From a virus, in IMG/VR virus record IMGVR_UViG_3300025876_000005, positions 1-64,000 of that record: DNA of 64,000 bases. One strand, given 5' to 3'. The notes below the pieces were generated by a model that saw only the letters and a program-made list of their open reading frames with translations, did no database searches and was not told where the DNA came from. Both the position numbers and the translations under genes were made by a program. This document shows positions 182-64,000 of the stretch, in pieces (position 1 is the first letter of the stretch; every line of letters starts with the position of its first letter).

Positions 182-439
182 ATGAAACATATAAAACTAT
201 TTGAAGAATTTATTAATGAGGAAGTAATTTCAGGAGGAATATCTGGGAATATGTCATTAGAGGATATTGCTAAAAAACATGAAGTAGATCTAGACGAACT
301 AGATACTGAGTATGAAAAAGGAATCTCAGTTGAGATGGAACATACTAATGATAAAAAAGTAGCGATGGAAATAGCAAGAGATCACCTTTTTGAGGATCCT
401 AAATATTATACAAAACTCGCAACTATAGAAAACGATTAA
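182..439 (+). CDS. Small phage protein (DUF5661-like) with N-terminal capsid-targeting-like peptide
   Basis: MKHIKLFEEFINE leader; KGISVEMEHT...EIARDHL.EDPKYYTKL motif typical of DUF5661-like phage proteins. Confidence 0.65.
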   Translation: MKHIKLFEEFINEEVISGGISGNMSLEDIAKKHEVDLDELDTEYEKGISVEMEHTNDKKVAMEIARDHLFEDPKYYTKLATIEND

Positions 440-443
440 AGAT

Positions 444-1106
444 ATGAAATACATAAAACTCTTTGAACAATTTGTTGCCGAAAAAATTAAAGCATCTGAA
501 GCCTACGATACAATGGAAGGCGTTCAGACTGTGATTGACGGTAAAAGAGAACTTGCATTTATTTCAACAATGGATGCTCCGATTTATCGACCTAATAACG
601 AGAGTGAACTAGAGGCAATGCAACATGGTCTAGATAATGGACTTAAAGCAATTGAAGTTAAAGGTAAACCTGATGGTAGGGCTTGGGTAATGTACAAGAA
701 CAACAAGAAGGCTGCTCAGAAACTTGCAGACTATGCAGAGAAGAAGGGTGGGTATTTAAGTGATGATACGCCAGAAGAGGCAAGATACGTTGGTGATCTG
801 CTTGGCTACGACAAGAAGGACATCAATGCATTTATCAAGAGAGTCTATAAAGTAGATGAAACCGAAGCCAGAGCAGACCTTAAAGATGAAGACGATAGAC
901 TGATGAAGATCAGACATTTCCAAGGCTCAATCCAAGACCTTGACGACTGGCTTAGAAGCAGGATCGGTGAAACAAATCCACATAAGGATGTTATAATGAT
1001 AAATGGGCCACAACAAGGCCAGAAAGATAAGTCATTACCATACCAAGACTTTCAAAACGGAGACTCAGATCTAATAAAGAATAGACATGGAAGAAAAGAC
1101 AGCTAA
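444..1106 (+). CDS. Hypothetical protein with capsid-targeting-like leader (putative internal head protein)
   Basis: MKYIKLFEQFVAE leader; 220-aa ORF. Confidence 0.6.
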   Translation: MKYIKLFEQFVAEKIKASEAYDTMEGVQTVIDGKRELAFISTMDAPIYRPNNESELEAMQHGLDNGLKAIEVKGKPDGRAWVMYKNNKKAAQKLADYAEKKGGYLSDDTPEEARYVGDLLGYDKKDINAFIKRVYKVDETEARADLKDEDDRLMKIRHFQGSIQDLDDWLRSRIGETNPHKDVIMINGPQQGQKDKSLPYQDFQNGDSDLIKNRHGRKDS

Positions 1107-1299
1107 AGATATAGCAGCTCAACTTAAACGCATTGCAGATGCTCTTGATAAACAAAATGTAATTGAAGAGAAGAAGCTTAAGCGTGACGAGAAAGTTAGT
1201 AAGCTACAGGAAAAGAAACTACGCAGCGATCTTCGTGAAGACATGCCGATTAACGAAGACAAGGTAATAAAAGTTAGACCAAACTTTAAAAGCCAGTGA
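1087..1299 (+). CDS. Hypothetical coiled-coil protein
   Basis: 70-aa charged helical ORF overlapping both neighbours in operon fashion. Confidence 0.6.
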   Translation: MEEKTAKDIAAQLKRIADALDKQNVIEEKKLKRDEKVSKLQEKKLRSDLREDMPINEDKVIKVRPNFKSQ

Positions 1300-2105
1300 G
1301 CTACTACGATACATTAGGTGTTAGCGAGAATGCAACACAGGATGAAATCAAGAAGGCTTATCGTAAACTAAGCAAGGAATATCACCCGGATATTAGTGGT
1401 GGCGATGATGTAAAATTTAAAGAGATCGCCGAAGCATACGGAGCTATTGGTGACGAAAATAAGCGAGCAAATTATGATAATCAACGAAGGCAACAAGACT
1501 TCTTTGCGCGGCATAACCAACAGGATCGTTACAGCATGTCCGACATGTTCGATCAGGTCTTTGGCAATGCGTTCAACAACCAACAGAGAAGACAAAAAGG
1601 ACAAGACATTAGAGTCCAGATCCATGTTTCATTTGATGAAGCATTTCATGGCACAACTAAAACTTTTGACGTTAACGGGCAGAGCATCCGAATGACGTTT
1701 AAACCTGGTCTAAAAACAGGCCAGCGTTTCAGAATAGCCGGCAAAGGCTATCCACATCAACTTAACACAAGCCTACCGAACGGAGACCTTGTAGTCGAGA
1801 TCCATGTTATCTCAGACAGTAGGTTTATTATGCAAGGCAACGACATCTGGCTAGAGAAAACCCTACCATGGTATGATATTATGTTAGGCTGTTCAATTCC
1901 ACTAGAAACACCAGAAGGCTTGATCAGCCTAAAGATACCAAGAGGTACTTACCCAGAAAAGACATTAAGACTTAAAGAGAAAGGCTACCCAGTTTACGGC
2001 ACAGAACAAAGGGGATCTCTCTTAGTAAAAATACATGCTTCTTACCCAGAATTAAACGAAGAGCAGTTAGAATATATAGAAAAGATAAAACAAAACAATG
2101 GATGA
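1296..2105 (+). CDS. dnaJ: DnaJ/CbpA-type co-chaperone (J domain plus C-terminal domain, no zinc finger)
   Basis: YYDTLGV...IKKAYRKLSKEYHPD J-domain with HPD; C-terminal GDLVVEI/LRLKEKG motifs; GTG start. Confidence 0.92.
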   Translation: MSYYDTLGVSENATQDEIKKAYRKLSKEYHPDISGGDDVKFKEIAEAYGAIGDENKRANYDNQRRQQDFFARHNQQDRYSMSDMFDQVFGNAFNNQQRRQKGQDIRVQIHVSFDEAFHGTTKTFDVNGQSIRMTFKPGLKTGQRFRIAGKGYPHQLNTSLPNGDLVVEIHVISDSRFIMQGNDIWLEKTLPWYDIMLGCSIPLETPEGLISLKIPRGTYPEKTLRLKEKGYPVYGTEQRGSLLVKIHASYPELNEEQLEYIEKIKQNNG

Positions 2106-2385
2106 TTCAGAAATGTTTATGAACTTTTACGATCCACATCGTGGCTCACCATTCTACGGAATGATGGCCAGTCTAATCTTTACACATAGAGATCAGTTCT
2201 ATCAAGCACTTTATGAAGCCATTTCAAAACATCCAAGTTACGTTGTTCTTTCAGATCTAGAATCAGAGAAAAAGTTAAAAGTCTTAGATGGTATGATTCA
2301 ATACTACGAGGCTAAAGAGTCCTACGAAAAATGTGCCACACTGTTAAACATTAAAAAAGAAATCGAAGAATATGTTGAAAATTGA
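2098..2385 (+). CDS. Hypothetical protein with C-terminal UVR-like motif
   Basis: YYEAKESYEKCATLLNIK resembles the UvrB/UvrC coiled-coil motif. Confidence 0.55.
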   Translation: MDDSEMFMNFYDPHRGSPFYGMMASLIFTHRDQFYQALYEAISKHPSYVVLSDLESEKKLKVLDGMIQYYEAKESYEKCATLLNIKKEIEEYVEN

Positions 2386-2563
2386 AGTCGGTAAAGGTGG
2401 CATTGAAAAAGCCCTTAAGCTATATAAATCTAAAGTAATACGTACAAGACAGCTCAAAGAACTACGCGAGCGCCAACAACATGTTAAGCCATCTGCTAAG
2501 AAGAGAAAGCAGAAAATGAAGGCTAAGTATGTAGAAAGCAAGTTTAGATCGAATCAAGACTAA
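2372..2563 (+). CDS. rpsU: Ribosomal protein bS21 (phage-encoded)
   Basis: IEKALKLYKSK...LRERQQHVKPSAKKR...KAKY matches the bS21 pattern, Bacteroidota-like. Confidence 0.88.
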   Translation: MLKIEVGKGGIEKALKLYKSKVIRTRQLKELRERQQHVKPSAKKRKQKMKAKYVESKFRSNQD

Positions 2564-2614
2564 ACTTATACCATAAAGATATACTACTATTTTTAATCTT
2601 AATTTCTAGTTAGG

Positions 2615-2959
2615 ATGTATGCCAGCAAAAATATATATGATGTGCGGTACAATAAACGTACTCGCAGATCATATATGAAAAAAGAAGGCAATACGATAAT
2701 GAGCGGATTTATTTCAAACTCGGACAAGGATAGTCTGATGAGAGCATCTTATTACCAACTCACACGTAACTTTACTAAGACGGTGAACCGCTTCATAGTA
2801 TTCAAGGACGATGATAGGTTAATAGAGATACCTCATGGCATAAGTCAGAGGTCTAAATTTATAGATCTAATGGTTAGATACTTCGAGGAGATCGAAGAGT
2901 ATGAAAAATGTGAACGACTAATGAAGCTAAAGGAGCTAGTCATAATGGCTGGGGATTAA
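2615..2959 (+). CDS. Hypothetical protein with C-terminal UVR-like motif (true start probably 2675 or 2699)
   Basis: YFEEIEEYEKCERLMKLK; same motif as 2098..2385. Confidence 0.55.
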   Translation: MYASKNIYDVRYNKRTRRSYMKKEGNTIMSGFISNSDKDSLMRASYYQLTRNFTKTVNRFIVFKDDDRLIEIPHGISQRSKFIDLMVRYFEEIEEYEKCERLMKLKELVIMAGD

Positions 2960-2973
2960 ACACAATAAATTGA

Positions 2974-3654
2974 ATGACAAAACGAACCAACACAGGAGAT
3001 AATAACGAACTGCTAAAGAGAGTACAATTAAGGCAGTCACAACAAAAATATTTAAACCAAATTGAAAACAATGAAATAACATTTTGCTACGGGCCAGCCG
3101 GAACTTCGAAAACGTTTACGGCTTGTTTCGCAGCACTTAAACTCTTAAAGGAGAAGAAGATCAAACAGATCATCTTATGTAAGCCAATCCAGGAAGCTGG
3201 TGAGAAGTTGGGCTTTCTACCAGGTGGTAAAGATGAGAAGGTAGATCCTTACATGAAATCTTACAAGTCTAACATCGAGAAGATTATTGGACATGAAGAG
3301 ACTAAGATCTTATTCGACAAGAATATTATTAAGTTTGAACCTTTAGCATATATGCGAGGCGATACGTTTGACGACTCACTTATGATTCTCGACGAAGCCC
3401 AGAACGCAACCTTTAAGCAGCTAATGTTATTTGTAACTCGAATGGGAAGAGACTCAAAGGTTATTGTAACCGGAGACGTAAGTCAACATGACATTGCAGC
3501 ATCTAGAGTTTCATTACCTAATTTCATCGAGTTAATCGGAAATGTAAAAGGTGTCGGCACTCACATCTTCAACGATAGAGATATAGTGAGAGCTAAGATT
3601 TTACAAGACATCGTGAAAAGGTATGACCAATGGAGACACAAGAACGAAAAATAA
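2974..3654 (+). CDS. phoH: PhoH family ATPase
   Basis: GPAGTSKT Walker A variant, LGFLPG, PLAYMRGDTF, ILDEAQN, TGDVSQHD, DIVR. Confidence 0.95.
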   Translation: MTKRTNTGDNNELLKRVQLRQSQQKYLNQIENNEITFCYGPAGTSKTFTACFAALKLLKEKKIKQIILCKPIQEAGEKLGFLPGGKDEKVDPYMKSYKSNIEKIIGHEETKILFDKNIIKFEPLAYMRGDTFDDSLMILDEAQNATFKQLMLFVTRMGRDSKVIVTGDVSQHDIAASRVSLPNFIELIGNVKGVGTHIFNDRDIVRAKILQDIVKRYDQWRHKNEK

Positions 3655-4076
3655 CAATCGAAGACGCGGGCTATAATGATCTAGACAGAATCTGCCAGAT
3701 CTATAGCTCCGCATTCGGCTTTACAGAACCAGCACCAGTTCAATGGTGGAAAATAATAAGTGACAATAGCATTACATATCGCGTCATTAAAGTTGACGGC
3801 GAAATTGCTGGAGTTGCTTCTCTAATTACAGTCAATAAAATTATCAGATCAGGTAATAGAATTGCCCTGATCGAAGACGTTGCTGTAGCTGAAGAATACC
3901 GAGGCTTAGGCTTAGGTAAAATGCTGATTGAAGATCTACTTAAACTTTCAGTAGAGAAGAATTGTTACAAGACAATCCTAAACTGTTCAGACGAGAACGT
4001 AGAGTTCTACGAAAAGTGTGGTATGTACAGAGCTGAGAACCAGATGCGATGGGATCGACCTAAGAAAGAGTCCTAA
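3630..4076 (+). CDS. GNAT acetyltransferase, glucosamine-6-phosphate N-acetyltransferase (GNA1)-like
   Basis: IEDVAV.EEYRGLGLGK.LI, CYKTILNC...NVEFYEKCG. Confidence 0.8.
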   Translation: METQERKITIEDAGYNDLDRICQIYSSAFGFTEPAPVQWWKIISDNSITYRVIKVDGEIAGVASLITVNKIIRSGNRIALIEDVAVAEEYRGLGLGKMLIEDLLKLSVEKNCYKTILNCSDENVEFYEKCGMYRAENQMRWDRPKKES

Positions 4077-4100
4077 ACAATTCTAGAGCTTCACATATAA
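4075..4100 (+). promoter_or_regulatory. Putative phage promoter AAAC-N16-ATATAA
   Basis: Same bipartite pattern and spacing recurs at 23219-23244; both precede nucleic-acid metabolism genes. Confidence 0.35.
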
Positions 4101-4118
4101 CTCTAAATAAGTTTATAA

Positions 4119-4751
4119 ATGAAGCAGATCCTACTAAAATCAAGCCATATGAACGACCTCGACATAACAGAGGTTGGCCTCGACGAGGCTGGCAGAGGCG
4201 CACTTGCAGGCCCAGTTACCGTTGCTGCGTGTATTATGCCACATGGTTTTCAACATGAGTTGATTAAAGACTCAAAGTTACTTTCTGAAGGACAGAAGGT
4301 AGAAGCTCGTAGGCTAGTTCTGGACAACGCACTTGCATATTCAATAGTTCATATTCCAGTAGAGGAAATCGAGTCCACAAACATACTGAAAGCGACTCTG
4401 AACGGTATGAAGCAATGCCTTGATAAAATAGCCGAAGAAAACGAGTTCCAGTTCATTCTGGTTGATGGGGATCAGTTCCATGGGTACAATGGTATACCTT
4501 TCGGAACCATCGTTGGCGGAGACAACATATACGTTAGTATTGCAGCAGCTTCGATTCTAGCAAAGACCGAACGTGATAATTACATGCGAGATTTGAGCCA
4601 GATGGAGGAGTATGCAGCATTTGGCTGGGGTAGTAATAAAGGCTACGGTACCAAACAACACAGAGACGCAATCGTTAACGAGGGCGCTACACCAATGCAC
4701 AGACATTCATTCATCAGTCACATGTTGACTAAAACAACTAATCTGTTTTGA
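4119..4751 (+). CDS. rnhB: Ribonuclease HII
   Basis: GLDEAGRGALAGPV, DSKLL, VDG, SIAAASILAK, NKGYGT..H, HRHSF. Confidence 0.95.
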   Translation: MKQILLKSSHMNDLDITEVGLDEAGRGALAGPVTVAACIMPHGFQHELIKDSKLLSEGQKVEARRLVLDNALAYSIVHIPVEEIESTNILKATLNGMKQCLDKIAEENEFQFILVDGDQFHGYNGIPFGTIVGGDNIYVSIAAASILAKTERDNYMRDLSQMEEYAAFGWGSNKGYGTKQHRDAIVNEGATPMHRHSFISHMLTKTTNLF

Positions 4752-5089
4752 ATCTGCTCTTAGGCTTCCTGCTCTTCTTCTTAGGCCAGGGCTTGATTTG
4801 GGTACAGACGAATGGTCAATTTGTATGGCCATGGTTTAAGAAGAACCCATGGCTAGTTTCTTTTGCTTTTGGTGGTATTATCAGTTACATCTTAATTCAG
4901 GCAACCCGACTAGTAGTTGAACATTTCGATGGAATGCTTTGGCCTGGCCGTTTTATTGGCTTTGCCAGTGGAATCCTGATCTTTACAGTAATGACATATA
5001 TTTTCATGGGTGAAGGTATAACTGCAAAAACAGGAGTTTCTCTCGCACTATCGGTTGGCCTAATCGCTATTCAATTATTTTGGAAATGA
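4748..5089 (+). CDS. Small multi-pass membrane protein
   Basis: Four hydrophobic segments; TTG start overlapping the rnhB stop. Confidence 0.6.
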   Translation: MNLLLGFLLFFLGQGLIWVQTNGQFVWPWFKKNPWLVSFAFGGIISYILIQATRLVVEHFDGMLWPGRFIGFASGILIFTVMTYIFMGEGITAKTGVSLALSVGLIAIQLFWK

Positions 5090-5337
5090 AACTAAAAGAC
5101 TTAGACAAGATAGAATTTAAGAAGCCACCAACAGTCGCAGTTTACCGTAAGACTAAAACAGGCAAAAAACACTACATGTTAGTCACTCTTAAAAGTGTTG
5201 ACATTGTGAATAATGCTCGAGCTCAGAAGCCCCTGATCGATCACAAATATGAGATTATAGATCTAGGTGTTGGTGAAGGTTTCATTGGGCGCTGGATGGA
5301 CAAACATAAGATTAAGACATTTGACTTTGTTGAGTAA
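5086..5337 (+). CDS. Hypothetical protein
   Basis: ORF overlapping the upstream stop (ATGA). Confidence 0.6.
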   Translation: MKLKDLDKIEFKKPPTVAVYRKTKTGKKHYMLVTLKSVDIVNNARAQKPLIDHKYEIIDLGVGEGFIGRWMDKHKIKTFDFVE

Positions 5338-5340
5338 ATC

Positions 5341-5408
5341 TGCAAAATAATTGCAAAAAAGTTTTCTAGTGTCAATCTTTTTTATTATATTAGTACTGTA
5401 ATTAAAAA
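5341..5408 (+). promoter_or_regulatory. Early promoter cassette (Bacteroidota sigma-A-like -7 element TATATTAG at 5386-5393)
   Basis: 32-nt identity with 16829-16860 and 31-nt identity with 11702-11732; intergenic, upstream of small genes. Confidence 0.7.
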
Positions 5409-5417
5409 CATACATAA

Positions 5418-5642
5418 ATGAACAAACTATTAGAAATTATCGGACTCTTCTTTATCGGGTTAACTGCTATCTCTTTAATAGCATTGCTAATGGCATTTCC
5501 AACCATGTGGTTGTGGAATACATGTCTAGAACCTGCAGTCGATGGAGTCAACTCAATCGGCTTCTGGCAAGCACTTGGATTGAACTTCTTATTCTCAATC
5601 CTATTTAAGTCAAACGTAAAAAGCAACAGCAAGAATGGATAA
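5418..5642 (+). CDS. Small membrane protein
   Basis: Two hydrophobic helices; follows the promoter cassette. Confidence 0.65.
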   Translation: MNKLLEIIGLFFIGLTAISLIALLMAFPTMWLWNTCLEPAVDGVNSIGFWQALGLNFLFSILFKSNVKSNSKNG

Positions 5643-6096
5643 GAAAGTAGTTTACATAGACATGGATGGCGTTCTCGTCGATCTAGTCGGTGCAGTCTAC
5701 GAAAAATATATCCATGCACTCGGTGAAGACGGTTTTGACGTTGGCGCGATTATCGACCAAGATGTAGAACCATTCTACAAAGCAGCGCCAATGCCAGGTG
5801 CGGTAGAAGCATTCAAGCAACTCAGTAACGACCCAAGATTTGACGTTTACATCTTATCAACAGCACCTTGGGCTAATCCAGAGTCTCTAACTGCAAAACG
5901 AGTTTGGGCAGAGCAACACCTTGGTAATGAGGTTAACCGAAGACTTATTTTCACACACAACAAGAACTTAATGATCGGTGACTATCTGATCGACGACCGA
6001 CCAAACAATGGTGCTGCAGAGTTCAAAGGTCAAGTAATTAAGTTTGGCTCGGAAGAATGCCCAGACTGGAAAACAGTATTGCAAATCTTAAACTAG
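5635..6096 (+). CDS. 5'(3')-deoxyribonucleotidase (NT5C-like HAD)
   Basis: YIDMDGVLVD, PMPGAVEA, ILSTAPW, K..W, GDYLIDDR. Confidence 0.88.
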   Translation: MDKKVVYIDMDGVLVDLVGAVYEKYIHALGEDGFDVGAIIDQDVEPFYKAAPMPGAVEAFKQLSNDPRFDVYILSTAPWANPESLTAKRVWAEQHLGNEVNRRLIFTHNKNLMIGDYLIDDRPNNGAAEFKGQVIKFGSEECPDWKTVLQILN

Positions 6097-6101
6097 AAAC
6101 A

Positions 6102-6302
6102 ATGGACGCTAGAGTTAGAGCTATTTACGACAAATGCACTGATGTAATATCATCATGTAAGAATGAAAGTCAAATGAATGCTGCAGCTAACTACAAAGAG
6201 CTTGCGATCAAACGCATTCGAGAACTGAGTAACATCCAGGCAATAGAGACTATAGTGGACAATATTAACTTTCACTATCGGATTAAGAGTAGACATTTAT
6301 AA
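6102..6302 (+). CDS. Hypothetical protein
   Basis: ORF; ATG 6102 follows the upstream stop. Confidence 0.55.
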   Translation: MDARVRAIYDKCTDVISSCKNESQMNAAANYKELAIKRIRELSNIQAIETIVDNINFHYRIKSRHL

Positions 6303-6347
6303 CAATGAATAAAAACAATTTAATCAAATAATCATAATCAAATAATC

Positions 6348-6572
6348 ATGAAACAGTTAGTATGTGGTTTTATAGGGTTCGTTACATTTTTAACGGCCTG
6401 TGTTTTGTTTTCTTCTTGTGAGAAAACGTGTATGCAATGGAGTTGTAATACTCATAAAGTAGATAAGAATGGTGAACAAATTTGGGTTCGAACATCAGCA
6501 TCCAATGGCCACATCTACGGAGAAAAGAATTGCATTTGTATTGATGAAGTAAACAGATATACCGGTAAATAA
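6348..6572 (+). CDS. Putative Cys-rich lipoprotein
   Basis: Hydrophobic N-terminus ending LFSSC (Bacteroidota-type lipobox); additional Cys residues. Confidence 0.5.
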   Translation: MKQLVCGFIGFVTFLTACVLFSSCEKTCMQWSCNTHKVDKNGEQIWVRTSASNGHIYGEKNCICIDEVNRYTGK

Positions 6573-6574
6573 AG

Positions 6575-6907
6575 ATGAAAAAGTTATTAGTAATAGCGGC
6601 AATGTTTGTTGGAGCAACTGCATTCGCACAAGAAGTCCATATTCCAAACGCATTCACCCCTGATGGTGATATGATGAATGATTATTGGAAACCTATATTT
6701 GATGATACATTGACGGTTTCAGATTACCTGTTAGAAGTTTATACACGTAATGGTCAACTTATATTTGAAACAAGAGATACCAATCAATATTGGGATGGCA
6801 CATGGTGGGGTTCTAATGTTAGTGAATCAACGTTCGTATATCGATTGGTAATGCGTGTTGAATCCAACGATATTAATAAAGTTGGATTTGTAGAAGTTTT
6901 GAGATAA
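6575..6907 (+). CDS. Signal peptide plus T9SS type-B sorting domain (gliding motility-associated C-terminal, CHU_C) protein
   Basis: MKKLLVIAAMFVGATAFA|Q signal peptide; IPNAFTPDGD..ND.W, L.VY.R.GQLIFET, WDGT, TFVY, GFVEVLR. Confidence 0.85.
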   Translation: MKKLLVIAAMFVGATAFAQEVHIPNAFTPDGDMMNDYWKPIFDDTLTVSDYLLEVYTRNGQLIFETRDTNQYWDGTWWGSNVSESTFVYRLVMRVESNDINKVGFVEVLR

Positions 6908-6911
6908 GTAC

Positions 6912-6985
6912 TCAAAAATAATTGCAAAAAAGATGGCCTGAGATTTTTTAGTCTCGGGCTTTTTTATTATATTTACACTGTAAAA
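6912..6985 (+). promoter_or_regulatory. Terminator-like stem-loop fused to an early promoter
   Basis: GGCCTGAGAT/GTCTCGGGCT hairpin (6935-6960) plus T-run, then TATATTTA-CACTGTAA. Confidence 0.7.
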
Positions 6986-6994
6986 CAAAACAAG

Positions 6995-7450: not shown

Positions 7451-7473
7451 AAATATAAACAAAAATTTAAAAT

Positions 7474-7833
7474 ATGAAACCAGAAGCAGGAAGTATTTAT
7501 AGAATACCATCACATGGTATCGTAATCATTAATGGAGTTAGAACCGTTAAAACCACTTCAGAGGAATATGAAGTAGTAGACTGGATTTCATTTACTATGA
7601 GAAATTCAAGAGGTACTATACGAATGAAGAATTGGTATATGAGTGTAGATTGTGGTTGTACTTATAATGATACTTACGGAGATAATAGCAATCCAACTGA
7701 ATCAGATTGTAGAGTTTGTAATGGTAGTGGTTTACAACAAATTGTAGAATCTGGTTTTGAAAAATCTACATTTTTAGCATATAGCTGTAAAGACTATATT
7801 GTGAAAACTTTAACTAAACCATTTAATTTTTAA
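7474..7833 (+). CDS. Hypothetical protein with possible zinc-ribbon
   Basis: CGC...CRVCNGSG. Confidence 0.55.
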   Translation: MKPEAGSIYRIPSHGIVIINGVRTVKTTSEEYEVVDWISFTMRNSRGTIRMKNWYMSVDCGCTYNDTYGDNSNPTESDCRVCNGSGLQQIVESGFEKSTFLAYSCKDYIVKTLTKPFNF

Positions 7834-7837
7834 GATT

Positions 7838-8236
7838 ATGAAGATATTATATTTACTTAGAGGTTTACCAGGATGTGGTAAATCATCATTAGCAAAATCA
7901 TTAATGAATGCACAGACAGGTCATGTAGAGGCCGATATGTTCTTTATGAAAAATGGAGAATACAACTTCGATGCTTCTAAATTAAAGGAAGCACATGAAT
8001 GGTGTCAAAAACAGACAGATGTTTATATGCAACCTTACGGCTATAATACAGTTATCGTTTCTAACACATTCACACAAGAATGGGAAATGAAACCTTACTA
8101 TGAATTGGCTGAAAAGTATGACTTTGCAGTATTCTCACTAATTGTTGAGAACCGTCACGGTGGAATCAATGAGCATGGAGTTCCTGATGAGACTTTAGAA
8201 AAAATGGAAAACAGATTTCAAGTAAAACTTAGATAA
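7838..8236 (+). CDS. P-loop kinase (AAA_33 / polynucleotide 5'-kinase-like)
   Basis: LLRGLPGCGKS Walker A, EADMFF, AHEWC, VIVSNTF, HGVP..TLEKM. Confidence 0.82.
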   Translation: MKILYLLRGLPGCGKSSLAKSLMNAQTGHVEADMFFMKNGEYNFDASKLKEAHEWCQKQTDVYMQPYGYNTVIVSNTFTQEWEMKPYYELAEKYDFAVFSLIVENRHGGINEHGVPDETLEKMENRFQVKLR

Positions 8237-8237
8237 A

Positions 8238-8507
8238 ATGGAACGAATTAAATTCAACATCAACCACGATGTTAAAGTAAAAGTAACCGAATATGGTTAT
8301 GAAGTATGGTTAGCTCATGAGAATAAGTTTGTACATTTTTCAGGTACCATTAAACCGGTTACTATTGAAGAATTAAAGACAAGGCAAGATGAAGACGGTT
8401 ATACTGAATTTCAAATGTGGGATATGATGTCAATCTTTGGACCTAAAATGCAAATGGGTTTTAAGAATCCAATTGATACTAACATTATCCTTTTACCAGA
8501 AAATTAA
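8238..8507 (+). CDS. Hypothetical phage protein
   Basis: FNINHDVKVK...GYTEFQMWDMMSIFG; typical small phage ORF. Confidence 0.6.
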   Translation: MERIKFNINHDVKVKVTEYGYEVWLAHENKFVHFSGTIKPVTIEELKTRQDEDGYTEFQMWDMMSIFGPKMQMGFKNPIDTNIILLPEN

Positions 8508-8531
8508 CAAAATAAATCTAATAAATAGGAC

Positions 8532-16083: not shown

Positions 16084-16770
16084 ATGGCAGGAGATAGTCT
16101 TAAATTTAGATCAGAGAATAGCGTGTTGAGTAAGATTAACGGCACGCCTGATCCTACAGTATCTCAAGATCTCACAAGTACAACATCCGATGCGAGTAAT
16201 AACGGTAGCTCTAAGATTACCGACAATCAGAGCGAACTCTCTGCAAAAGAGGGCCAAGGTTTAAATAAGGTCAATAACGCTGAAGATCCAGCTAAAGGCT
16301 CAGACGGTTTAAGCGTAAATGACATGAAAAATAAGTCTAGCGCTAAATCCTCAGAAAAATCAGACTTAGCTCCTATTAATGAAACGAAAGTGGATGCAAA
16401 GAGTGATGCTGATGGTAATATAGTTTCAAATATTTATAACTCTGGTAAATCTTATGTTAGCGACTGGTTAAAGACTAGAAAAGAAGAAGCTATTAATAAG
16501 CTAAGAGAATATGCCATTGAAAGTGTTAGTAATATAACAAACCCTAAAAGTGATGACGGGCCTGATTCTAATGAAAATACACGTTCTACGCCTAAGTCAA
16601 GTATGGGCAGAGTACCGGCTTTAGATGCTCAACGACCATCACCTGAAATACCGAACACAACAGGCCAAAAGGAAATACCAAGTCCTAAGATGCCGCCTCG
16701 AACTCCGGCAAATGCAATGCCAAAGATGAACATGCCGAAGGTATCTGTTCCTAAGATGAGATTTAGATAA
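16084..16770 (+). CDS. Low-complexity, probably disordered protein
   Basis: S/N/D/K-rich with a Pro-rich MPK-repeat tail; has its own promoter-like motif and terminator. Confidence 0.6.
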   Translation: MAGDSLKFRSENSVLSKINGTPDPTVSQDLTSTTSDASNNGSSKITDNQSELSAKEGQGLNKVNNAEDPAKGSDGLSVNDMKNKSSAKSSEKSDLAPINETKVDAKSDADGNIVSNIYNSGKSYVSDWLKTRKEEAINKLREYAIESVSNITNPKSDDGPDSNENTRSTPKSSMGRVPALDAQRPSPEIPNTTGQKEIPSPKMPPRTPANAMPKMNMPKVSVPKMRFR

Positions 16771-16794
16771 TTTAGATTGAACAAGATAGATCTT

Positions 16795-16819
16795 GGGCCC
16801 CATTGGGGCCCTTTTTTTT
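16795..16819 (+). terminator. Intrinsic terminator
   Basis: GGGCCCC-ATT-GGGGCCC followed by T8. Confidence 0.85.
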
Positions 16820-16886
16820 GCAAAAAAGTTGCAAAAAAGTTTTCTAGTGTCAATCTTTTTGTTTATATTTACACTGTAATTAAAAC
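16820..16886 (+). promoter_or_regulatory. Early promoter cassette
   Basis: 32-nt identity to 5351-5382; TATATTTA-CACTGTAATTAAAA. Confidence 0.7.
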
Positions 16887-16895
16887 AAAGCAATT

Positions 16896-17159
16896 ATGAC
16901 ACCATTTTGGAACGATAACGGAACAATGCAATTCTTCGAGGTTGGACAATTCGACTGGCAAAAGGATAACAAGGCGTTTGTACAAGAAGCAAGTATGCTT
17001 GGCATTGGAACTCCAGCAACGACCCTGATAATTAAGAACCCTAAGACTGGTAATCTCAAGAGTTTTAAGATGTGTGGTATCGATCGCGATGCTGAAGAAA
17101 TCTACGGCTGGCGATATAAAACTAACGATGGTCTCAAAGCGCTTATTATTAACGACTAA
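16896..17159 (+). CDS. Hypothetical protein
   Basis: ORF directly after the early promoter cassette. Confidence 0.6.
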   Translation: MTPFWNDNGTMQFFEVGQFDWQKDNKAFVQEASMLGIGTPATTLIIKNPKTGNLKSFKMCGIDRDAEEIYGWRYKTNDGLKALIIND

Positions 17160-17163
17160 AATT

Positions 17164-17574
17164 ATGAACATGGAATATACATTTAACGCAAACGAAGTCC
17201 ACTGTAATGGTGTTGGTGGATATGGTTACCAAGCAGCTCTAAAATCAAAAGATCTAATCGAGTCTACCATCTTAAAGGTCCGCTTAGATCTTGGTCTTAA
17301 TGAAATCTGGAGTAGAATTATTGCAGCAGACCCTAACGGTGACTATCACCAAGGCAGTCGCTTTAACCATCTTGATAATATAGTTTCTCGACTAACAACA
17401 GGTCTTGGCAATTGGGCCTGGAATAAGTTTGAGAACGAAGAGCTTGTTGAGATGAATATTAAGCACATTCTTGAAACTATCACTAAAGAAGATGCTATAA
17501 CTATCGTGGTCGACGCGCATCGTGATTGCGCTGGTGCAGACCACTGGTACACATTCGAAAAAGACTGGGGCTAA
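17164..17574 (+). CDS. Hypothetical protein (start 17164 or 17170)
   Basis: In-frame ATGs just after the upstream stop. Confidence 0.6.
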   Translation: MNMEYTFNANEVHCNGVGGYGYQAALKSKDLIESTILKVRLDLGLNEIWSRIIAADPNGDYHQGSRFNHLDNIVSRLTTGLGNWAWNKFENEELVEMNIKHILETITKEDAITIVVDAHRDCAGADHWYTFEKDWG

Positions 17575-17575
17575 G

Positions 17576-17776
17576 ATGCAACACATTATTTACTACTTAC
17601 TTGGAGGAATCCTGTTCAACTTTATCTACGACTTGCTTGTAGATAAGTTGGGCAATAAGGCTCTACGCTTTACAATGAAAGAGCGGATTGCAGTCGGTCT
17701 AATCTGGCCAATCTATACTATTATGTTTATACGAAACCTTTTCATACACCTCTTTAAAAATAACCAAGATGACTAA
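17576..17776 (+). CDS. Small membrane protein
   Basis: Two hydrophobic segments, LIWP motif. Confidence 0.55.
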   Translation: MQHIIYYLLGGILFNFIYDLLVDKLGNKALRFTMKERIAVGLIWPIYTIMFIRNLFIHLFKNNQDD

Positions 17777-18686
17777 TTTAGGCTACTGCTGTATCAATAT
17801 TGAACTACGCAAAGACAAGATCACTACCAATCGTGGTATGATTAAACGCACCTTTCAAGAAAAGGGCATTGCATACGCATCAGAACTAACCTTAAACAAC
17901 ATCCGAGATCTAATTGAGATCATCAAGTGGAACCATAAGAACGGCATTACGCTTTACCGTATGTCCAGCGACATCTTTCCATGGATGAGTGAATACGAAC
18001 TCAAAGACTTACCAGACTATAAGAAGATCTCAATCCTACTCAACGGTGTGGGTCATCTGGCAAAGAAATACGGTCAACGCCTGACCTTTCACCCTGGTCA
18101 TTTCAACGTGCTTGCTAGCACAAATCAGGCTGTAGTTGACAAGACTATTAGAGAATTAGACCAACATGCTGAGATCATGGATCTTATGGGTTTACCAGAG
18201 ACTCATTACGCTGCAATCAACATTCATGTTAATACAACTCAAGGTGGCAAGCAAGAATGTCTGGCTAGATTCAGACAGAACTTTAAATTGCTTAAACCGA
18301 CTACACAAGCACGTCTTGTTGTAGAGAACGACGACAAGCGGTCTCAGTACGCAGTAGAGGACCTCTATGACGGTCTTTACACTCACCTTAATATACCAAT
18401 CACTTTTGACTATCATCATCACTGGTGCCATCCAGGCCATTTAGATCAAGAAGCAGCGCTCCGACTTGCTAGTAAGACTTGGCACAGATCAATCAAACAA
18501 CTTTGCCATTACTCTTCAGCTAAATGCGTTTACGAAGATGAAAGTGTAATGAACCGCGCACATGCCGATTACATCTATGATCCGATTGACGACTACGGCC
18601 TAGACCTTGACATTGAGATAGAAGCCAAGGCTAAAGAGAAGGCAGTGCAACGTTATCTGAAACAATACACATTAGAACTCGTATAA
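17769..18686 (+). CDS. uvsE: UV-damage endonuclease UvsE/UVDE
   Basis: LGYCCIN, LYRMSSDIFP, RLTFHPGHF.VLAS, INIHV, RLVVENDDK, FDYHHH, HAD, EAKAKE. Confidence 0.93.
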   Translation: MTNLGYCCINIELRKDKITTNRGMIKRTFQEKGIAYASELTLNNIRDLIEIIKWNHKNGITLYRMSSDIFPWMSEYELKDLPDYKKISILLNGVGHLAKKYGQRLTFHPGHFNVLASTNQAVVDKTIRELDQHAEIMDLMGLPETHYAAINIHVNTTQGGKQECLARFRQNFKLLKPTTQARLVVENDDKRSQYAVEDLYDGLYTHLNIPITFDYHHHWCHPGHLDQEAALRLASKTWHRSIKQLCHYSSAKCVYEDESVMNRAHADYIYDPIDDYGLDLDIEIEAKAKEKAVQRYLKQYTLELV

Positions 18687-18700
18687 GCATTAAAATATTT

Positions 18701-18928
18701 ATGAAAAACATTTTATCTAAATTGGCTAGTGGTTTTAGAGCATTCCTTAGAATCTGCTCTAAATACCAAATGTCTATTCAGTCAACTATCTTTTGGATTG
18801 TTGCTATCATGAACATTGGTTCTGATAGATTTTGGTTATTTGCTATTCCAGCTATTATTTTTAGCGGACTAGGAGAGATTATTGGAGAACTACGTAAATC
18901 AAATACAGAGCAAAATGGCAAATCTTAA
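18701..18928 (+). CDS. Small membrane protein
   Basis: Hydrophobic hairpin. Confidence 0.5.
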   Translation: MKNILSKLASGFRAFLRICSKYQMSIQSTIFWIVAIMNIGSDRFWLFAIPAIIFSGLGEIIGELRKSNTEQNGKS

Positions 18929-19157
18929 ATTACAAGCACTTAAAGCGCGCTATCAAGCTAGAAAGCTTGAAGCATTAGCTGAACTAGAAAACTATATGTC
19001 AAATTCGGCTGGGATCGGGGAGCACCCGCACATTGTTGACGAAATGGACAAATTGGTATCTGCAATCGCAGATGCAGATGGTTGCATGCAGGTTCTAGAT
19101 GAGGTATTCACATCGTCACCTGAAGGCAACACCCAGACAAATGCCGTGAATAGTTGA
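18915..19157 (+). CDS. Conserved T4-like phage hypothetical protein
   Basis: Y..NSAGIGEHP.IVDEMDKL motif seen in T4-like phage small proteins. Confidence 0.6.
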   Translation: MANLKLQALKARYQARKLEALAELENYMSNSAGIGEHPHIVDEMDKLVSAIADADGCMQVLDEVFTSSPEGNTQTNAVNS

Positions 19158-19180
19158 TTAGGCCTTAGTTTAGCTTTAGC

Positions 19181-19210
19181 AGAGGAGTCACGTTGTGGCT
19201 CCTCTTTTTT
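19181..19210 (+). terminator. Intrinsic terminator, followed by GATATATA (19213-19220)
   Basis: AGAGGAGTCAC-GTT-GTGGCTCCTCT followed by a T-run. Confidence 0.85.
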
Positions 19211-19224
19211 ATGATATATAAACC

Positions 19225-19947
19225 ATGAGGCATATAGAGACTTATAATGATTTTATCAACGAAGGCAGAAGCAAGTACGATGGCTTAGCCAATAAACTCG
19301 TGAGCCAAAACTTTAAGAAGTGGATTAAAGACTGGAAGAGTGGCAAGAAGCTATCGACCTTTATGCTAAGCGTTGAAGAGCGTGGACTAATCTTTGATCT
19401 TACTTCAACGATCTACTTTGGTGACGTTGAAGGTCAGCAGATAAAAGGCTTTGAAGTCTTAGATTCAACTGGCGCTGACGGTAGAGATGAGTATTACGAT
19501 GATGAAGGCGATCTAGTGGATCAGGATCCTTATATCTTAATTGACTTTGCAATCAACGATGAGTGGCTGCCTGGCGAATGGCAAACGGTCTATATGCACC
19601 TTGCCGACGTAATGCGCCACGAGATGGAACATATTACCCAAGACGGTAAAAGTGTCGGAAACTACAGAATGGGCAAACCAGATGAAGATGACTCTGAAAT
19701 GCGAGCCTTGATTAAAATGGGCTTCTTACCAAAGTATCATTACTTGATGCTACCAAAAGAAGTAGATGCTAATCTACAAGGCTTAAGGTATGAGGCTAAG
19801 AAACGTAAAGAGTCGATTGCAGATGCTATTAACAGATATTTAGACGTTCAACAAGAACAAGATGTGATAGATAATGAAACAAGAGCTGAAGTTTTAGACC
19901 TTTGGCGCAGAAGAGCACAAAAAATAGGTGGCATTGGTAAATTCTAA
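19225..19947 (+). CDS. HExxH (zincin-like) protein with capsid-targeting-like leader
   Basis: MRHIETYNDFINE leader; RHEMEHITQ followed by Y...PKEVDA (third ligand-like Glu). Confidence 0.6.
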   Translation: MRHIETYNDFINEGRSKYDGLANKLVSQNFKKWIKDWKSGKKLSTFMLSVEERGLIFDLTSTIYFGDVEGQQIKGFEVLDSTGADGRDEYYDDEGDLVDQDPYILIDFAINDEWLPGEWQTVYMHLADVMRHEMEHITQDGKSVGNYRMGKPDEDDSEMRALIKMGFLPKYHYLMLPKEVDANLQGLRYEAKKRKESIADAINRYLDVQQEQDVIDNETRAEVLDLWRRRAQKIGGIGKF

Positions 19948-20867
19948 TGAAGATCAATACAACATATAATGATTTCTTAAACGAGAAGAAGAACAAGAAG
20001 AATTCAATTAAGTCTAAGGTCAAGAAGATTGACAAGAAGATTAAGAAGACTGTTGGCAAACAAGAAGATTTAGTTAAAACAGCCAAAGAGCTTGCTGATT
20101 CTCCGGAACCTTCTGATAAGATGAAGGCTTCACTAGCTAAGGTGCAACTACGTCAGTCTTCAGCAAAGGCACAAGAATTGGTTATGCGCAAAGAGGCTGA
20201 AATCTTAAAGAATAAAATTAAGGCTGCTAAGAAAAAAGAAAGAGCAACCAACGAAGATATGAAATTTGTAAAGCTCTTTGAAGAATTTGTTACCGAGAAG
20301 AAGCCGAAAGGCGCACCGGACTTTCATCACTCAGATGCACCGGATGCTGAAGGTCGCTTCAGAGATCTTTCTATTAAGGATCTAGCTGCTTGGCTAATTA
20401 AGACTCGCAAGAAGGATGTTAAGAAGATTAGTGGTTCATTAACTCAACAATACGTCTTTAATCGCAACGACGATCCAGACTACGCTGAGAAGATGCAGAA
20501 GACTCGCAAAGAGGTTTATAAGCAACTTGGTAGAGAAGATCTAATTGACAAGATGGATGAGTCTTTAAATGAGTCAAATTATTATCCAGGTTTTGATGGT
20601 GTTAAGATTACCGGCTACGTTGAAGGCGATAAGGCTAAGTTAAACCACATTGAAGTTAAAGCTGCACAAAGAGGTGGTGGAATTGGCTCAAAGGCGGTTG
20701 CTGACTTTGAAAGATGGGCTAAAGAACAAGGTGCTAAATATGTAGAGATTGATGCATATAAGAAATCAATCAAGTTTTGGGAGAAGATGGGCTATGAACT
20801 AGAGAAAGAGTTTCCAGTGATGTATGGACATAAACAAGATTACAAAACTGGAATAAAAGAACTATGA
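19947..20867 (+). CDS. Multi-module protein with two targeting-like peptides and a C-terminal GNAT domain
   Basis: MKINTTYNDFLNE; internal MKFVKLFEEFVTE; ESLNES linker; HIEV..AQRGGGIGS..V, A..SIKFWEKMGY. Confidence 0.65.
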   Translation: MKINTTYNDFLNEKKNKKNSIKSKVKKIDKKIKKTVGKQEDLVKTAKELADSPEPSDKMKASLAKVQLRQSSAKAQELVMRKEAEILKNKIKAAKKKERATNEDMKFVKLFEEFVTEKKPKGAPDFHHSDAPDAEGRFRDLSIKDLAAWLIKTRKKDVKKISGSLTQQYVFNRNDDPDYAEKMQKTRKEVYKQLGREDLIDKMDESLNESNYYPGFDGVKITGYVEGDKAKLNHIEVKAAQRGGGIGSKAVADFERWAKEQGAKYVEIDAYKKSIKFWEKMGYELEKEFPVMYGHKQDYKTGIKEL

Positions 20868-21403
20868 AATTTATAAAGACATTTGAGGATTGGAATAATG
20901 TATCGCCAGAACTAAAGGCTCACATCGATGAGGACCTTGACTTAACCAATTCATTCTTTAGACTGGGCAGTGAGGCCTATGCTAAACTTTTTGAAGAGGT
21001 AAAAGAGTACTGGGATAAAGGCAACATCATTCTTAAAGGTCCAAGCGGTTGGATGGCTAAAAACCTTGAAGTTGGTAAGCCAGCAGTCTATAAAGAACGT
21101 GGCGGTAAGGCCAAGAAGGTTAAACTGGATTCACCAGAACGTGGTGGCAATAAGAAGTTTATTGTCTATCGTAACACTGGTCGAACTGATGAAGACGGTA
21201 ATATTCTAGCTAAGAAGATTGAATGGGGAGACCCGAAACTTGCAGTTAAGAATGATGACCCTGGGGCAGCGGCTTCATTCTGGGCAAGACATAAATGTGA
21301 CACTAAAGCTAAACAAGATCCTAATAAAGCCGGCTTCTGGGCTTGTTATGGGCCAACACTTTTTGGCAAACAACTAGGGCTTAAATCAGATCAACCATGG
21401 TAA
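20864..21403 (+). CDS. Hypothetical protein with capsid-targeting-like leader
   Basis: MKFIKTFEDW leader; KKF.VY...WGDP...SFWARHKC...AGFWAC phage motif. Confidence 0.6.
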   Translation: MKFIKTFEDWNNVSPELKAHIDEDLDLTNSFFRLGSEAYAKLFEEVKEYWDKGNIILKGPSGWMAKNLEVGKPAVYKERGGKAKKVKLDSPERGGNKKFIVYRNTGRTDEDGNILAKKIEWGDPKLAVKNDDPGAAASFWARHKCDTKAKQDPNKAGFWACYGPTLFGKQLGLKSDQPW

Positions 21404-21702
21404 CGCACGAAGAAATGATAGAGATGATTGAAGACCAGCGTAAACCCTTTACTGAAGAGCGCTACGATGGTTATATCATGCGTCATTTTGATTCAAGCTA
21501 CCCGGAACACTTATTCAAATGGCACTGGGATGAAGAGGACCGAACAATAGAGGTTCTTGAAGACAATGACTGGCGCTTTCAGTATGACAATGAAATGCCA
21601 ATTCCAATGCTAACAGGTGTGGATATTAATATCCCAGCTGGAACTATCCACAGAGTAATCAAAGGCACAGCTGTGTTAAGCGTAAAAATATTATTTGATT
21701 AG
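21397..21702 (+). CDS. Cupin-like protein
   Basis: WHWDEEDR...W.FQ.DN..P...IPAGTIHRVIKG. Confidence 0.6.
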   Translation: MVTHEEMIEMIEDQRKPFTEERYDGYIMRHFDSSYPEHLFKWHWDEEDRTIEVLEDNDWRFQYDNEMPIPMLTGVDINIPAGTIHRVIKGTAVLSVKILFD

Positions 21703-21744
21703 CAAGATATATAAAACCTAAGCACAAAAATAAAACTAAAGAAA

Positions 21745-22329
21745 ATGGCTAGAAAAATTTTATCATTTGAGGAGTACTCAAAGAAAGTAAACGCACCAGA
21801 CGTTAGTGAAGAAGAAACTGACGAGGTGGCAACTGAAGACAGAGCTGAAGAGATCGAGGACGATGGCATAGAGACGGCTAACGAAGAAGATGAAGACGAG
21901 TCTGAAGAACTAGAAGGCGAAGAGTCTGATGAGGACGAGGATGAAGACGAGGATGAAGACGACGACGATGATGAGGACGAGGATGAAGACGAGGATGAGG
22001 ATGAAGACTCTGAAGAGGAGTCTGAAGAAGTTAAGTTAGCATCTGAAATGTTAAAAGAAGTCTACGAATCTGCGTGTAACGAAGCTAAAGCATATGAAGG
22101 TGATGATTACCAAGAACATACCGTAGAATCTTACATGAAAGAGATGGCAGCTCTTAATGCTGGCATGATGGCTGAAATGTATGAGTCTGCGTGTGAAGGT
22201 GTTAAAGAAGGTGAAATGACTGTTGAAATGTACGAAGCATCATGTAACGAGATGAAAGAAGCCTATGCTAAGAAGATGGATGAAATGATGGAAGCGTGGT
22301 CGGCTGATGCACCTGCTACTGAAGACTAA
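21745..22329 (+). CDS. Highly acidic protein (possible head core/scaffold-type)
   Basis: KILSFEEY leader; long D/E tract; three YE(S/A)(A/S)C repeats; GATATATA at 21706. Confidence 0.6.
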   Translation: MARKILSFEEYSKKVNAPDVSEEETDEVATEDRAEEIEDDGIETANEEDEDESEELEGEESDEDEDEDEDEDDDDDEDEDEDEDEDEDSEEESEEVKLASEMLKEVYESACNEAKAYEGDDYQEHTVESYMKEMAALNAGMMAEMYESACEGVKEGEMTVEMYEASCNEMKEAYAKKMDEMMEAWSADAPATED

Positions 22330-22351
22330 ACTAAATAAAAATAAATTAAGA

Positions 22352-23110
22352 ATGGCTAAAATATTTTACGTAACAGAAAGAACGCCAGATTATGCTCAGG
22401 TGAATTTCTTTAAGACAGAAAAAGAGGCTTTGGAATATGGTATCTCTGAATTACCACAATTCGACATGTATGACGAACCAACGAACGATGAAGAGGCTGA
22501 TGGTGAAGAATGGTACCAAGGAGACTCTCTAACATTTAAAAAAGGAATCTTATTTTCATTTGAAGGTGGCGAGGTCTACGTTCAAGCAATGGAAGAAGAC
22601 GCAGCTAGAGAATATGTTGAAGAGCTTGGTGAAGAAGGTGGAGCTATTTTCTTTGATGGCTTTAGCAGAGGAATGTATGGTTATCTAGGCACAGCAGCTG
22701 ACGGTAAAGGTTTCAAATGGGACTGGGATGGCTACGATCTTAATGAGTCAAAAAATGAAATACATAAAATGAAATACACAAAAACATTTGAATCATTTGT
22801 AAATGGTTCTACAAAAGAGCTTAACGAAAAAGTAAACGCATCAGGTTACATTAAAGCTGGTAAATTAGGTTATAACGATCAATTCCTAGGAAGACAATCA
22901 CTTTCTAAAACATTATCATTAGATTTAGGTTTTGATAAAAAGAACGAATTTGGTGGTGGAGATTGGATTGGATTCGATCACGTATCAATGTACGCTTCTG
23001 GTAAAAAGGGTGGAACTATAATAGATGACGCACTAACCGGTAAATATACATATGATGAGTTAAAGGCAGCAGCTGCTAAACACTTTGGCATTAGCGAATC
23101 AGGTAGTTAA
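22352..23110 (+). CDS. Two-module hypothetical protein with internal targeting-like peptide
   Basis: Start reassigned to ATG 22352; internal LNES...MKYTKTFESFVN (ATG 22769). Confidence 0.6.
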   Translation: MAKIFYVTERTPDYAQVNFFKTEKEALEYGISELPQFDMYDEPTNDEEADGEEWYQGDSLTFKKGILFSFEGGEVYVQAMEEDAAREYVEELGEEGGAIFFDGFSRGMYGYLGTAADGKGFKWDWDGYDLNESKNEIHKMKYTKTFESFVNGSTKELNEKVNASGYIKAGKLGYNDQFLGRQSLSKTLSLDLGFDKKNEFGGGDWIGFDHVSMYASGKKGGTIIDDALTGKYTYDELKAAAAKHFGISESGS

Positions 23111-63758: not shown

Positions 63759-64000
63759 ATGAAGACATTTAATAAATACTTAGTTGAAGAACATGTGACA
63801 GAAACCGACATGGAACTAATCAAAGAGGGTTTACAGGAAGAATGGACTCCGGAATTAGAAGCTAAGGTTGATGCTGCTATCGATGAATTCATGAAGCAAT
63901 ACGCAGATGCTGATGGAAACTTAAGTATTGAAAGGCTTAATGAAGAGATGACTAATGAAGGTTTTCTAGGTTCTATCTTAGGTGGTTTAACAGGATACGC
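63759..64000 (+). CDS. 5' part of a protein with capsid-targeting-like leader (truncated by window edge)
   Basis: MKTFNKYLVEE...RLNEEMTNEGFLGSILGGL; open to the end of the window. Confidence 0.65.
   Translation, partial: MKTFNKYLVEEHVTETDMELIKEGLQEEWTPELEAKVDAAIDEFMKQYADADGNLSIERLNEEMTNEGFLGSILGGLTGY

Follow-up and report, generated by a model that had tools for sequence, protein, structure and literature searches.

Why should a set of otherwise unrelated proteins of one virus all begin with the same short peptide? The question is raised by the first 64,000 bases (the window) of IMG/VR record IMGVR_UViG_3300025876_000005 (G000; 176,489 bp, CheckV completeness 59%), in which a preliminary description had noticed such a leader on about ten proteins and had read it as a portable address that loads varied cargo into the phage head for injection. 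Judged by its genes, the phage is an uncultured, marine relative of T4 whose portal, prohead protease and major capsid genes are of the T4 type, and the + strand carries nearly every gene of the record. We consider it likely that the shared N-terminal peptide is the counterpart, in this lineage, of the capsid-targeting propeptide of T4, which the head protease removes, and the phage probably packs a varied and exchangeable set of proteins into its virion. The principle is already known for T-even phages, in which one tag on diverse cargo has been established (PMC3012670, PMC9026906, PMC12373910), and what we describe is a variant of it in a new lineage. A literature search found no paper that prints the leader, describes it in this lineage or links the capsid-targeting sequence to cyanophages or marine phages.

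The leader peptide and its likeness to the T4 capsid-targeting sequence

Twelve proteins of the record start with M-K-x-h-x-x-[F/Y]-[E/N/Q]-x-F-[I/L/V]-N-E, five of them in the window (start coordinates 182, 444, 10759, 19225 and 19947) and seven beyond it (70945, 76651, 77945, 78363, 104357, 116376 and 123750), and all 12 have I, L or V at P3, three residues ahead of the expected cut. About seven weaker variants occur at other N-termini (8532, 10511, 20864, 21745, 63759, 97508 and 108732); those at 97508 and 108732, which lie outside the window, are probable, and orthologs support the variants at 63759, 108732 and 21745. Three further copies are found inside open reading frames (ORFs), each right behind a Met: 20259-20300 in ORF 19947, 22769-22804 in ORF 22307 and 77481-77522 in ORF 77169. 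The ten N-termini quoted in the preliminary description, five strong ones (182, 444, 10759, 19225 and 19947) and five weaker ones (8532, 10511, 20864, 21745 and 63759), are all present at their coordinates as starts of + strand ORFs, relatives carry the leader as well, and scanning the genome with a leader profile revealed more copies.

This profile, a hidden Markov model (HMM) of residues 2-14 of eleven clear cases with the Met omitted, reached at least 10 bits at 12 N-termini and two internal sites among the 224 called proteins, scored 8-10 bits at the internal copy 20259-20300, and gave zero matches in 20 shuffled proteomes. When the whole 176-kb record was scanned in six frames, all 14 matches of at least 10 bits lay on the + strand and in the coding frame. 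The protein starting at 131120 matches in part only (MKKVTSFNR, 7.8 bits). Past residue 16, an all-vs-all BLASTP comparison of 21 proteins gave no match at E <= 0.01, which, together with the silence of the HMM in the shuffled proteomes, bears out the claim that otherwise unrelated proteins share the leader. Its codons vary synonymously (TTT/TTC, GAA/GAG, AAT/AAC and six codons for I/L/V), which points to selection on the peptide and not on the DNA.

The conservation of the leader can be followed in gene 70945, whose product of 427 amino acids (aa) has 1768 database homologs. In the 120 closest of these the body is at least 75% identical, and the alignment of all 121 sequences shows 98% conservation of F10 and E13 and maintained aromatic and hydrophobic positions, followed by a hypervariable stretch, residues 14-22. 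Such a pattern fits a propeptide, that is a functional tag, followed by a flexible linker.

A profile (A1) made from the alignment of the 12 leaders was searched over the complete T4 genome in six frames. It returned two matches only (E = 5e-4), and these are the first codons of ipII and ipIII, both of which begin MKTYQEFIAE. In IPIII, the first 10 residues are enough to bring about entry into the head, residues 4 and 7 of the T4 tag serve mainly targeting and residues 8 and 10 processing, and gp21 cleaves after L/I-x-E (PMC9026906). T4 residues 4, 7, 8 and 10 line up with F/Y7, F10, I/L/V11 and E13, the conserved positions of the leader described here.

The head gene cluster of the record lies outside the window and comprises a Portal_T4 portal (102738-104342), a Peptidase_S77 prohead protease of 734 aa that is fused to a long scaffold-like tail (104769-106973) and a Gp23-family major capsid protein (107109-108623), the portal and capsid genes adjoining that of the protease. 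The protease matches PF03420 at 46-49 bits, over the cut-off, as well as PDB 5jbl, and is 28% identical to T4 gp21 (E = 9e-12). Its GELDHP and SSR align with GELNHP and VSSRG of gp21, and it retains the His and the Ser, which we take to be the catalytic residues of gp21. The fusion contains many Y-[I/L]-x-E sites. Tandem IQY[S/T]EHVAEK repeats and an extended acidic region mark its scaffold-like tail of about 530 aa. The same protease-scaffold fusion is annotated in Tenacibaculum phage PTm1 and is also present, in frames of 600-720 aa, in 9 other large contigs.

Gene 104357 occupies the gap between portal and protease, which is the place of gp67/gp68 in T4. Among 80 related IMG/VR loci fetched with the protease, this core-position gene was readable in 64, and all 40 distinct versions listed from these 64 loci carry the leader. 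In some of them residues are added between F-x-x-F and h-x-E (e.g. TFEDFISAKVQE/A and TFESFVKKVNE/D, with a slash at the expected cut), as would be tolerated by a two-part signal that is bound and then cut. With ipII and ipIII as the only T4 genes found by the profile, a protease of the gp21 family and a tagged gene in core position, the suggested likeness to T4-type capsid targeting has gained support.

The capsid protein itself starts with MANL[I/L]NE and has two further h-x-E motifs within residues 1-27, all conserved in 32 distinct relatives. We considered MANLINE/AEIRN as a counterpart of the gp23 cleavage site FLTE/AEIGG and rejected it: the alignment puts it opposite gp23 residues 5-22, at the extreme N-terminus of gp23, so that we claim only three conserved h-x-E motifs in the first 27 capsid residues. 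By this protein, the nearest relatives in the database are uncultured huge phages, Prevotella Lak phages and Tenacibaculum phage PTm1, the last being the closest cultured phage (34% identity). A megablast search of a phage collection for near-identical DNA gave no match.

The tag of T4 IPI, IPII and IPIII shares with the present leader that it is an N-terminal propeptide with two aromatics three apart and I/L/V-x-E after them, that it sits on unrelated bodies and that it goes together with a gp21-family protease in a T4-type head gene cluster. Tags of this type are short, 10-19 residues in T4, and stand at the extreme N-terminus. The two systems differ in several respects. The usual leader here has 13 residues, whereas that of T4 has 10, and the extra three are at the N-terminus; T4 has three copies, whereas the present record, at 59% completeness, has at least 15 and a complete relative has up to 38; and among the cargo are enzyme domains, small membrane-like proteins and acidic proteins, while that of T4 consists of small basic proteins. 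Leader copies within ORFs, which form joints here, are not seen in T4, and in the N-terminal part that can be aligned, the capsid protein shares only about 24% identity with gp23.

T-even phages have variable ip loci, which were found through their shared signal sequence, and at least 10 Ips are cited (PMC12373910). These loci resemble the present system in combining a conserved leader with fast-changing unrelated proteins, gene islands and a content that varies between close relatives; they belong, however, to Tequatrovirus of enterobacteria and encode small inhibitor proteins, whereas several cargo proteins here are enzymes by their domains. In the giant phages phiKZ, 201phi2-1 and SPN3US, a diverged gp21-like protease cleaves propeptides of head proteins behind a Glu (PMC9026906, PMC5694885, PMC10052503), with S/A-x-E as the cleavage motif of phiKZ (PMC9026906). 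These head ejection proteins resemble the system proposed here in that propeptides occur on many head-internal proteins, a relative of gp21 is the protease and the cargo is large and diverse. A short shared N-terminal address peptide has not been described for these phages, whereas here a defined 13-residue tag has I/L/V at P3, and none of the 12 strong leaders shows S/A-x-E. Iyer, Burroughs, Anand, de Souza and Aravind reportedly described in 2017 polyvalent proteins of phages and conjugative elements, in which unrelated conflict-type domains stand in one chain that is believed to accompany the DNA into the cell. Comparable chains are encoded by gene 74103 and the two-leader ORFs, but with short modules, protease-type joints and a T4-type leader that would address them to the head; no link at family level was found, and an Atlas lead to LPD23, with a score of 0.86, stood at chance level.

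Exchange of tagged modules among relatives

Related records contain 3 to 38 tags each, on bodies that differ. In a 150-kb relative (G002), whose protease is about 85% identical, 16 leaders are present; G000 lacks homologs of five tagged proteins of G002, which in turn lacks homologs of many cargo proteins of G000. The two modules of gene 444 each stand behind a leader of their own in G002, one as a stand-alone gene and the other after an internal leader in a longer ORF. In the product of gene 74103, which has 814 aa, residues 484-810 correspond to a free-standing tagged gene of G002, and IIESFSKFVESLNE can still be read at the G000 joint. Likewise, G002 has the C-terminal module of ORF 22307 as a leader-tagged gene of its own, and both records contain DUF3008 with an in-frame leader behind it and then a C-terminal module that varies. 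It is precisely at the tags that modules have been exchanged or fused between relatives.

Gene 74103-76547 shows a further peculiarity: over its first 80 residues, the product matches residues 392-469 of the protease-scaffold fusion at 53% identity (E = 2e-15), and each of the two stretches ends in EYIEES. This start, which appears to derive from the scaffold, may represent a second route into the prohead. The product also has repeated ES-x-V-x-E joints.

A back-translated leader pattern was scanned over IMG/VR, and among the matches listed at least 168 copies lie in 118 stretches; 153 of them stand at the beginning of complete ORFs with a median length of 145 aa, and for 128 a stop is found no more than 10 codons upstream. 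By our own estimate, the chance expectation of this pattern is far below one. The at least 136 unique tagged proteins among these matches fall into 94 unrelated body clusters. This diversity and the exchange of modules at the tags agree well with the earlier proposal of a portable tag on varied cargo. Three complete genomes of 482, 256 and 430 kb contain 38, 22 and 6 copies, respectively, partly in islands. In the complete 256-kb genome (G006), about 15 leader-tagged small genes stand within 7 kb at 193-200 kb, and IMGVR_UViG_3300031566_000207 has a similarly dense array of nine leader copies on small genes, eight of which span about 5 kb (7508-12107).

Timing, proposed mechanism and competing explanations

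The time at which the tagged genes are expressed can be estimated from promoter motifs. Of the box GATATATA, the + strand carries 32 copies and the - strand one (shuffle mean 10), and 24 of the 32 + strand copies lie within 70 nucleotides (nt) ahead of a start codon. We take this box to be the late promoter because it precedes the genes of the portal, the protease, the capsid protein and other virion proteins. Further promoter classes are recognisable, namely early (TTATATT..TACTGTAATT) and middle (ATATACTA). When each gene was assigned to the nearest upstream promoter motif, a crude rule that ignores terminators, late units held 11 of the 12 assignable strong tags and 74 of 158 other genes, while early and middle units held one tag and 84 other genes (Fisher one-sided p = 0.0024; promoter motifs only). 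An equal frequency of the motif on early proteins, which the preliminary description had named as an argument against head loading, is thus not what these promoter assignments show (11 late against 1 early or middle). The early blocks at 131-135 kb and 143-158 kb contain no convincing tag.

The early promoter element itself is about 50 nt long and near-identical (TTGCAAAAAAG ... TTATATT.GTACTGTAATT) in at least 13 copies, at 5385, 6967, 11710, 13166 and 16863 in the window and at 78942, 131074, 134843, 143955, 144341, 146403, 146981 and 150394 beyond it. It creates spurious ORF calls, e.g. 11615-11902.

A mechanism modelled on T4 would run as follows. The tagged proteins would be made mostly late in infection, and their [F/Y]-x-x-F aromatic pair would bind them to the scaffolding core of the assembling prohead; the gp21-family protease would then cut after the Glu of [I/L/V]-x-E, and the mature protein, freed inside the head, would stay with the DNA. 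Part of the cargo would probably be ejected into the host together with the DNA, as is the case for T4 Ip1-3. Leader copies within ORFs and degenerate hydrophobic-x-Glu joints appear to chain unrelated modules, which the same protease would separate. We infer injection and effector roles from the T4 example, and the acidic, core-like members probably have neither: the products of 104357 and 21745 look like prohead-core parts rather than effectors and would more likely be degraded.

Could the whole cargo consist of such parts? The tag would then still target the prohead, but the tagged proteins would be components of assembly, like T4 gp67 and gp68, and would be degraded and expelled at maturation without any effector delivery. 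Gene 104357 with its acidic tail in the gp67/gp68 position, the hyper-acidic product of 21745, which resembles T4 gp67, and the abundance of Y-[I/L]-x-E sites in the protease-scaffold fusion would agree with this, and gene 70945, with its identity of at least 75% over the 120 closest homologs, behaves more like a core gene than like a gene in an arms race. Nevertheless, we regard this explanation as unlikely, since most bodies are enzymes or folded domains (GNAT, DUF5661, HExxH, KxDG ligase-like, CCA) that have no plausible scaffold role, and since turnover is high, many tagged genes being unique to G000 or to G002. Moreover, most tagged proteins have one clear cleavage motif, at the leader, so that most of the cargo would survive the protease in the same way as the internal proteins of T4.

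Still less probable, in our judgement, is a leader that is recognised by a machine other than the capsid, such as a modifying enzyme, a chaperone or a degradation adaptor. The profile picks exactly the two T4 proteins that have an experimentally shown capsid-targeting tag (PMC9026906), the tag ends in the cutting motif of the phage's own head protease and marks the gene in core position, and the tagged genes are mostly late; a radical-SAM gene was not found in the record, which is 59% complete. The similarity might also reflect the requirements of translation initiation, with first codons that are rich in A and unstructured, or a DNA recombination cassette, the peptide having no function at all. 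It is true that many phage genes open with MK and A-rich codons and that modules recombine at the tags. Yet the conserved part is F/Y-x-x-F-h-x-E at residues 7-13 and not the first codons, the codons of the conserved residues vary synonymously, so that DNA identity among leaders is low, the motif never occurs in shuffled proteomes, and the pattern persists in orthologs whose adjoining linker is hypervariable; this makes a functionless peptide very improbable.

Some observations nevertheless speak against a head-loading propeptide. The early unit starting at 6967 holds the strong tag of 10759 and the weak ones of 8532 and 10511, genes 182 and 444 at the contig start have no assignable promoter, and the assignment of genes to promoters is crude, as stated above. 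AlphaFold gives the leader just a low-confidence helix, and the internal tags are without tested precedent in T4, where the tag is used at the N-terminus. The S77 protease (600-720-aa frame) is present in 9 of the 10 largest tag-bearing contigs, a link without a proper negative set, as most large marine phage contigs may be T4-like anyway. No cultured member of the lineage was found, and in Tenacibaculum phage PTm1 the leader was looked for and not found, so that PTm1 data cannot be used as a test of the tag idea.

Proteins that are carried in the virion and injected act ahead of any phage gene expression. In T4 all three proteins of this kind are inhibitors of host restriction systems, Ip1-3 acting on distinct GmrSD enzymes (PMC12373910). 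If the leader is indeed a head-loading propeptide, it would list candidate first-strike counter-defence or takeover proteins of uncultured marine phages from sequence alone, and the loading mechanism would be much more ancient and in wider use than is apparent from the T-even examples. In-frame tags together with protease-type joints suggest a simple route by which cargo is added, dropped or recombined, and the tag may serve to load foreign proteins into capsids of phages that do not infect E. coli. A more far-reaching view, which seems to us possible rather than probable, is that the T4 tag represents an ancient, general virion-loading signal across the T4 superfamily. Marine jumbo phages would then use it as a plug-in system, with 15 to 38 cargo genes in each genome, delivering enzymes (RNA-ligase-like, CCA-adding, acetyltransferase and metalloprotease-like) and membrane-active proteins with their DNA, some of them as protease-cut chains.

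Tagged genes of the window and their cargo

The tagged genes of the window all lie on the + strand. At its start, gene 182..439 encodes a protein of 85 aa with the leader MKHIKLFEEFINE and a DUF5661 domain at residues 27-84, and is followed by gene 444..1106, which encodes a two-module protein of 220 aa with the leader MKYIKLFEQFVAE and a joint, KVDE, at about residue 139. Gene 8532..9686 encodes a CCA-adding/PolyA_pol enzyme of 384 aa, in which the Pfam match begins at residue 41; about 20 extra N-terminal residues carry the variant leader MQLKTFTEFQMVNE, and the one ortholog found keeps it as MQLKTFTEFQMITE. We grade this enzyme as a probable member only, because it lies in an early-promoter unit. 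A coiled-coil-like protein of 83 aa with the weak leader MKHVKSFELFEKATKAE (10511..10762) also belongs to an early unit. Gene 10759..11637, with a GTG start, encodes a protein of 292 aa with the strong leader (V)KKVGLYEQFVNE; it is the only strong tag in an early unit, and a late-like GATATAAATA lies about 35 nt upstream.

A late promoter box GATATATA at 19213..19220 (+ strand), with a terminator hairpin ahead of it, stands 12 nt before gene 19225..19947, whose product of 240 aa begins with the leader MRHIETYNDFINE; an ortholog in G002 is 61% identical and has the leader too. The earlier label of an HExxH protein holds, the motif being present as HEMEH at residue 132; no family match was obtained, and an Atlas search with this protein gave no usable match. 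The adjoining gene 19947..20867 encodes a two-leader protein of 306 aa, in which MKINTTYNDFLNE comes first, then a basic module rich in Lys, another in-frame leader, MKFVKLFEEFVTE (20259-20300), and finally a GNAT acetyltransferase module. The internal proteins of T4 are basic, and the strongly Lys-rich, basic module between the two leaders (residues 14-103) recalls these DNA-associated proteins. For three genes the cargo had been named correctly from the start: DUF5661 for 182, a PolyA_pol/CCA-type enzyme for 8532 and a C-terminal GNAT domain for 19947.

In the same late unit as 19947, gene 20864..21403 encodes a protein of 179 aa with the weak leader MKFIKTFEDW. Another late promoter box GATATATA (21706..21713, + strand) lies 39 nt before gene 21745..22329, whose hyper-acidic product of 194 aa has the weak leader MARKILSFEEY, retained as MAKPILSFEEY in the G002 ortholog, and an Asp/Glu run similar to that of the T4 prohead-core protein gp67. 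The ORF at 22307..23110 contains the internal in-frame leader MKYTKTFESFVNG at 22769-22804. At the end of the window, gene 63759..64000 continues to 64127 and encodes a protein of 122 aa with a glycine-zipper membrane-like segment; it belongs to a late unit downstream of tail genes, and its G002 ortholog is 76% identical. In length and spacing, its leader, MKTFNKYLVE, is an exact match to the T4 tag.

Taken over the whole record, hyper-acidic cargo is encoded by 21745 and 104357, and small proteins with membrane-like or glycine-zipper segments by 63759, 108732 (whose ortholog begins MKLKSKLKLYEQFVNE), 116376 and 123750. Pfam and PHROGs searches were blank for most cargo proteins. The product of 70945 can be called RNA-ligase-like (KxDG) as a lead only, a label given because of the invariant TEKTDG motif in its body. 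Its AlphaFold model is poor (pLDDT 61), and Foldseek returned nothing significant, with RNA ligases ranking top at E = 0.06-0.3; a profile search of the PDB gave no match, and an Atlas search returned DUF6267.

Outside the window, 97508-98860 encodes a protein of 450 aa (PHROG 1250) with weak HTH_7 and AAA_16 matches, whose leader MHFLDFNSFLNEA is one residue short; its promoter box, GATATATACTA, overlaps the late and the middle motifs. Within the late cargo cluster at 69312-78881, the ORF 72239-74083 encodes a protein of 614 aa that has a C-terminal cytidylyltransferase-like (NMNAT-type) domain and no recognisable leader.

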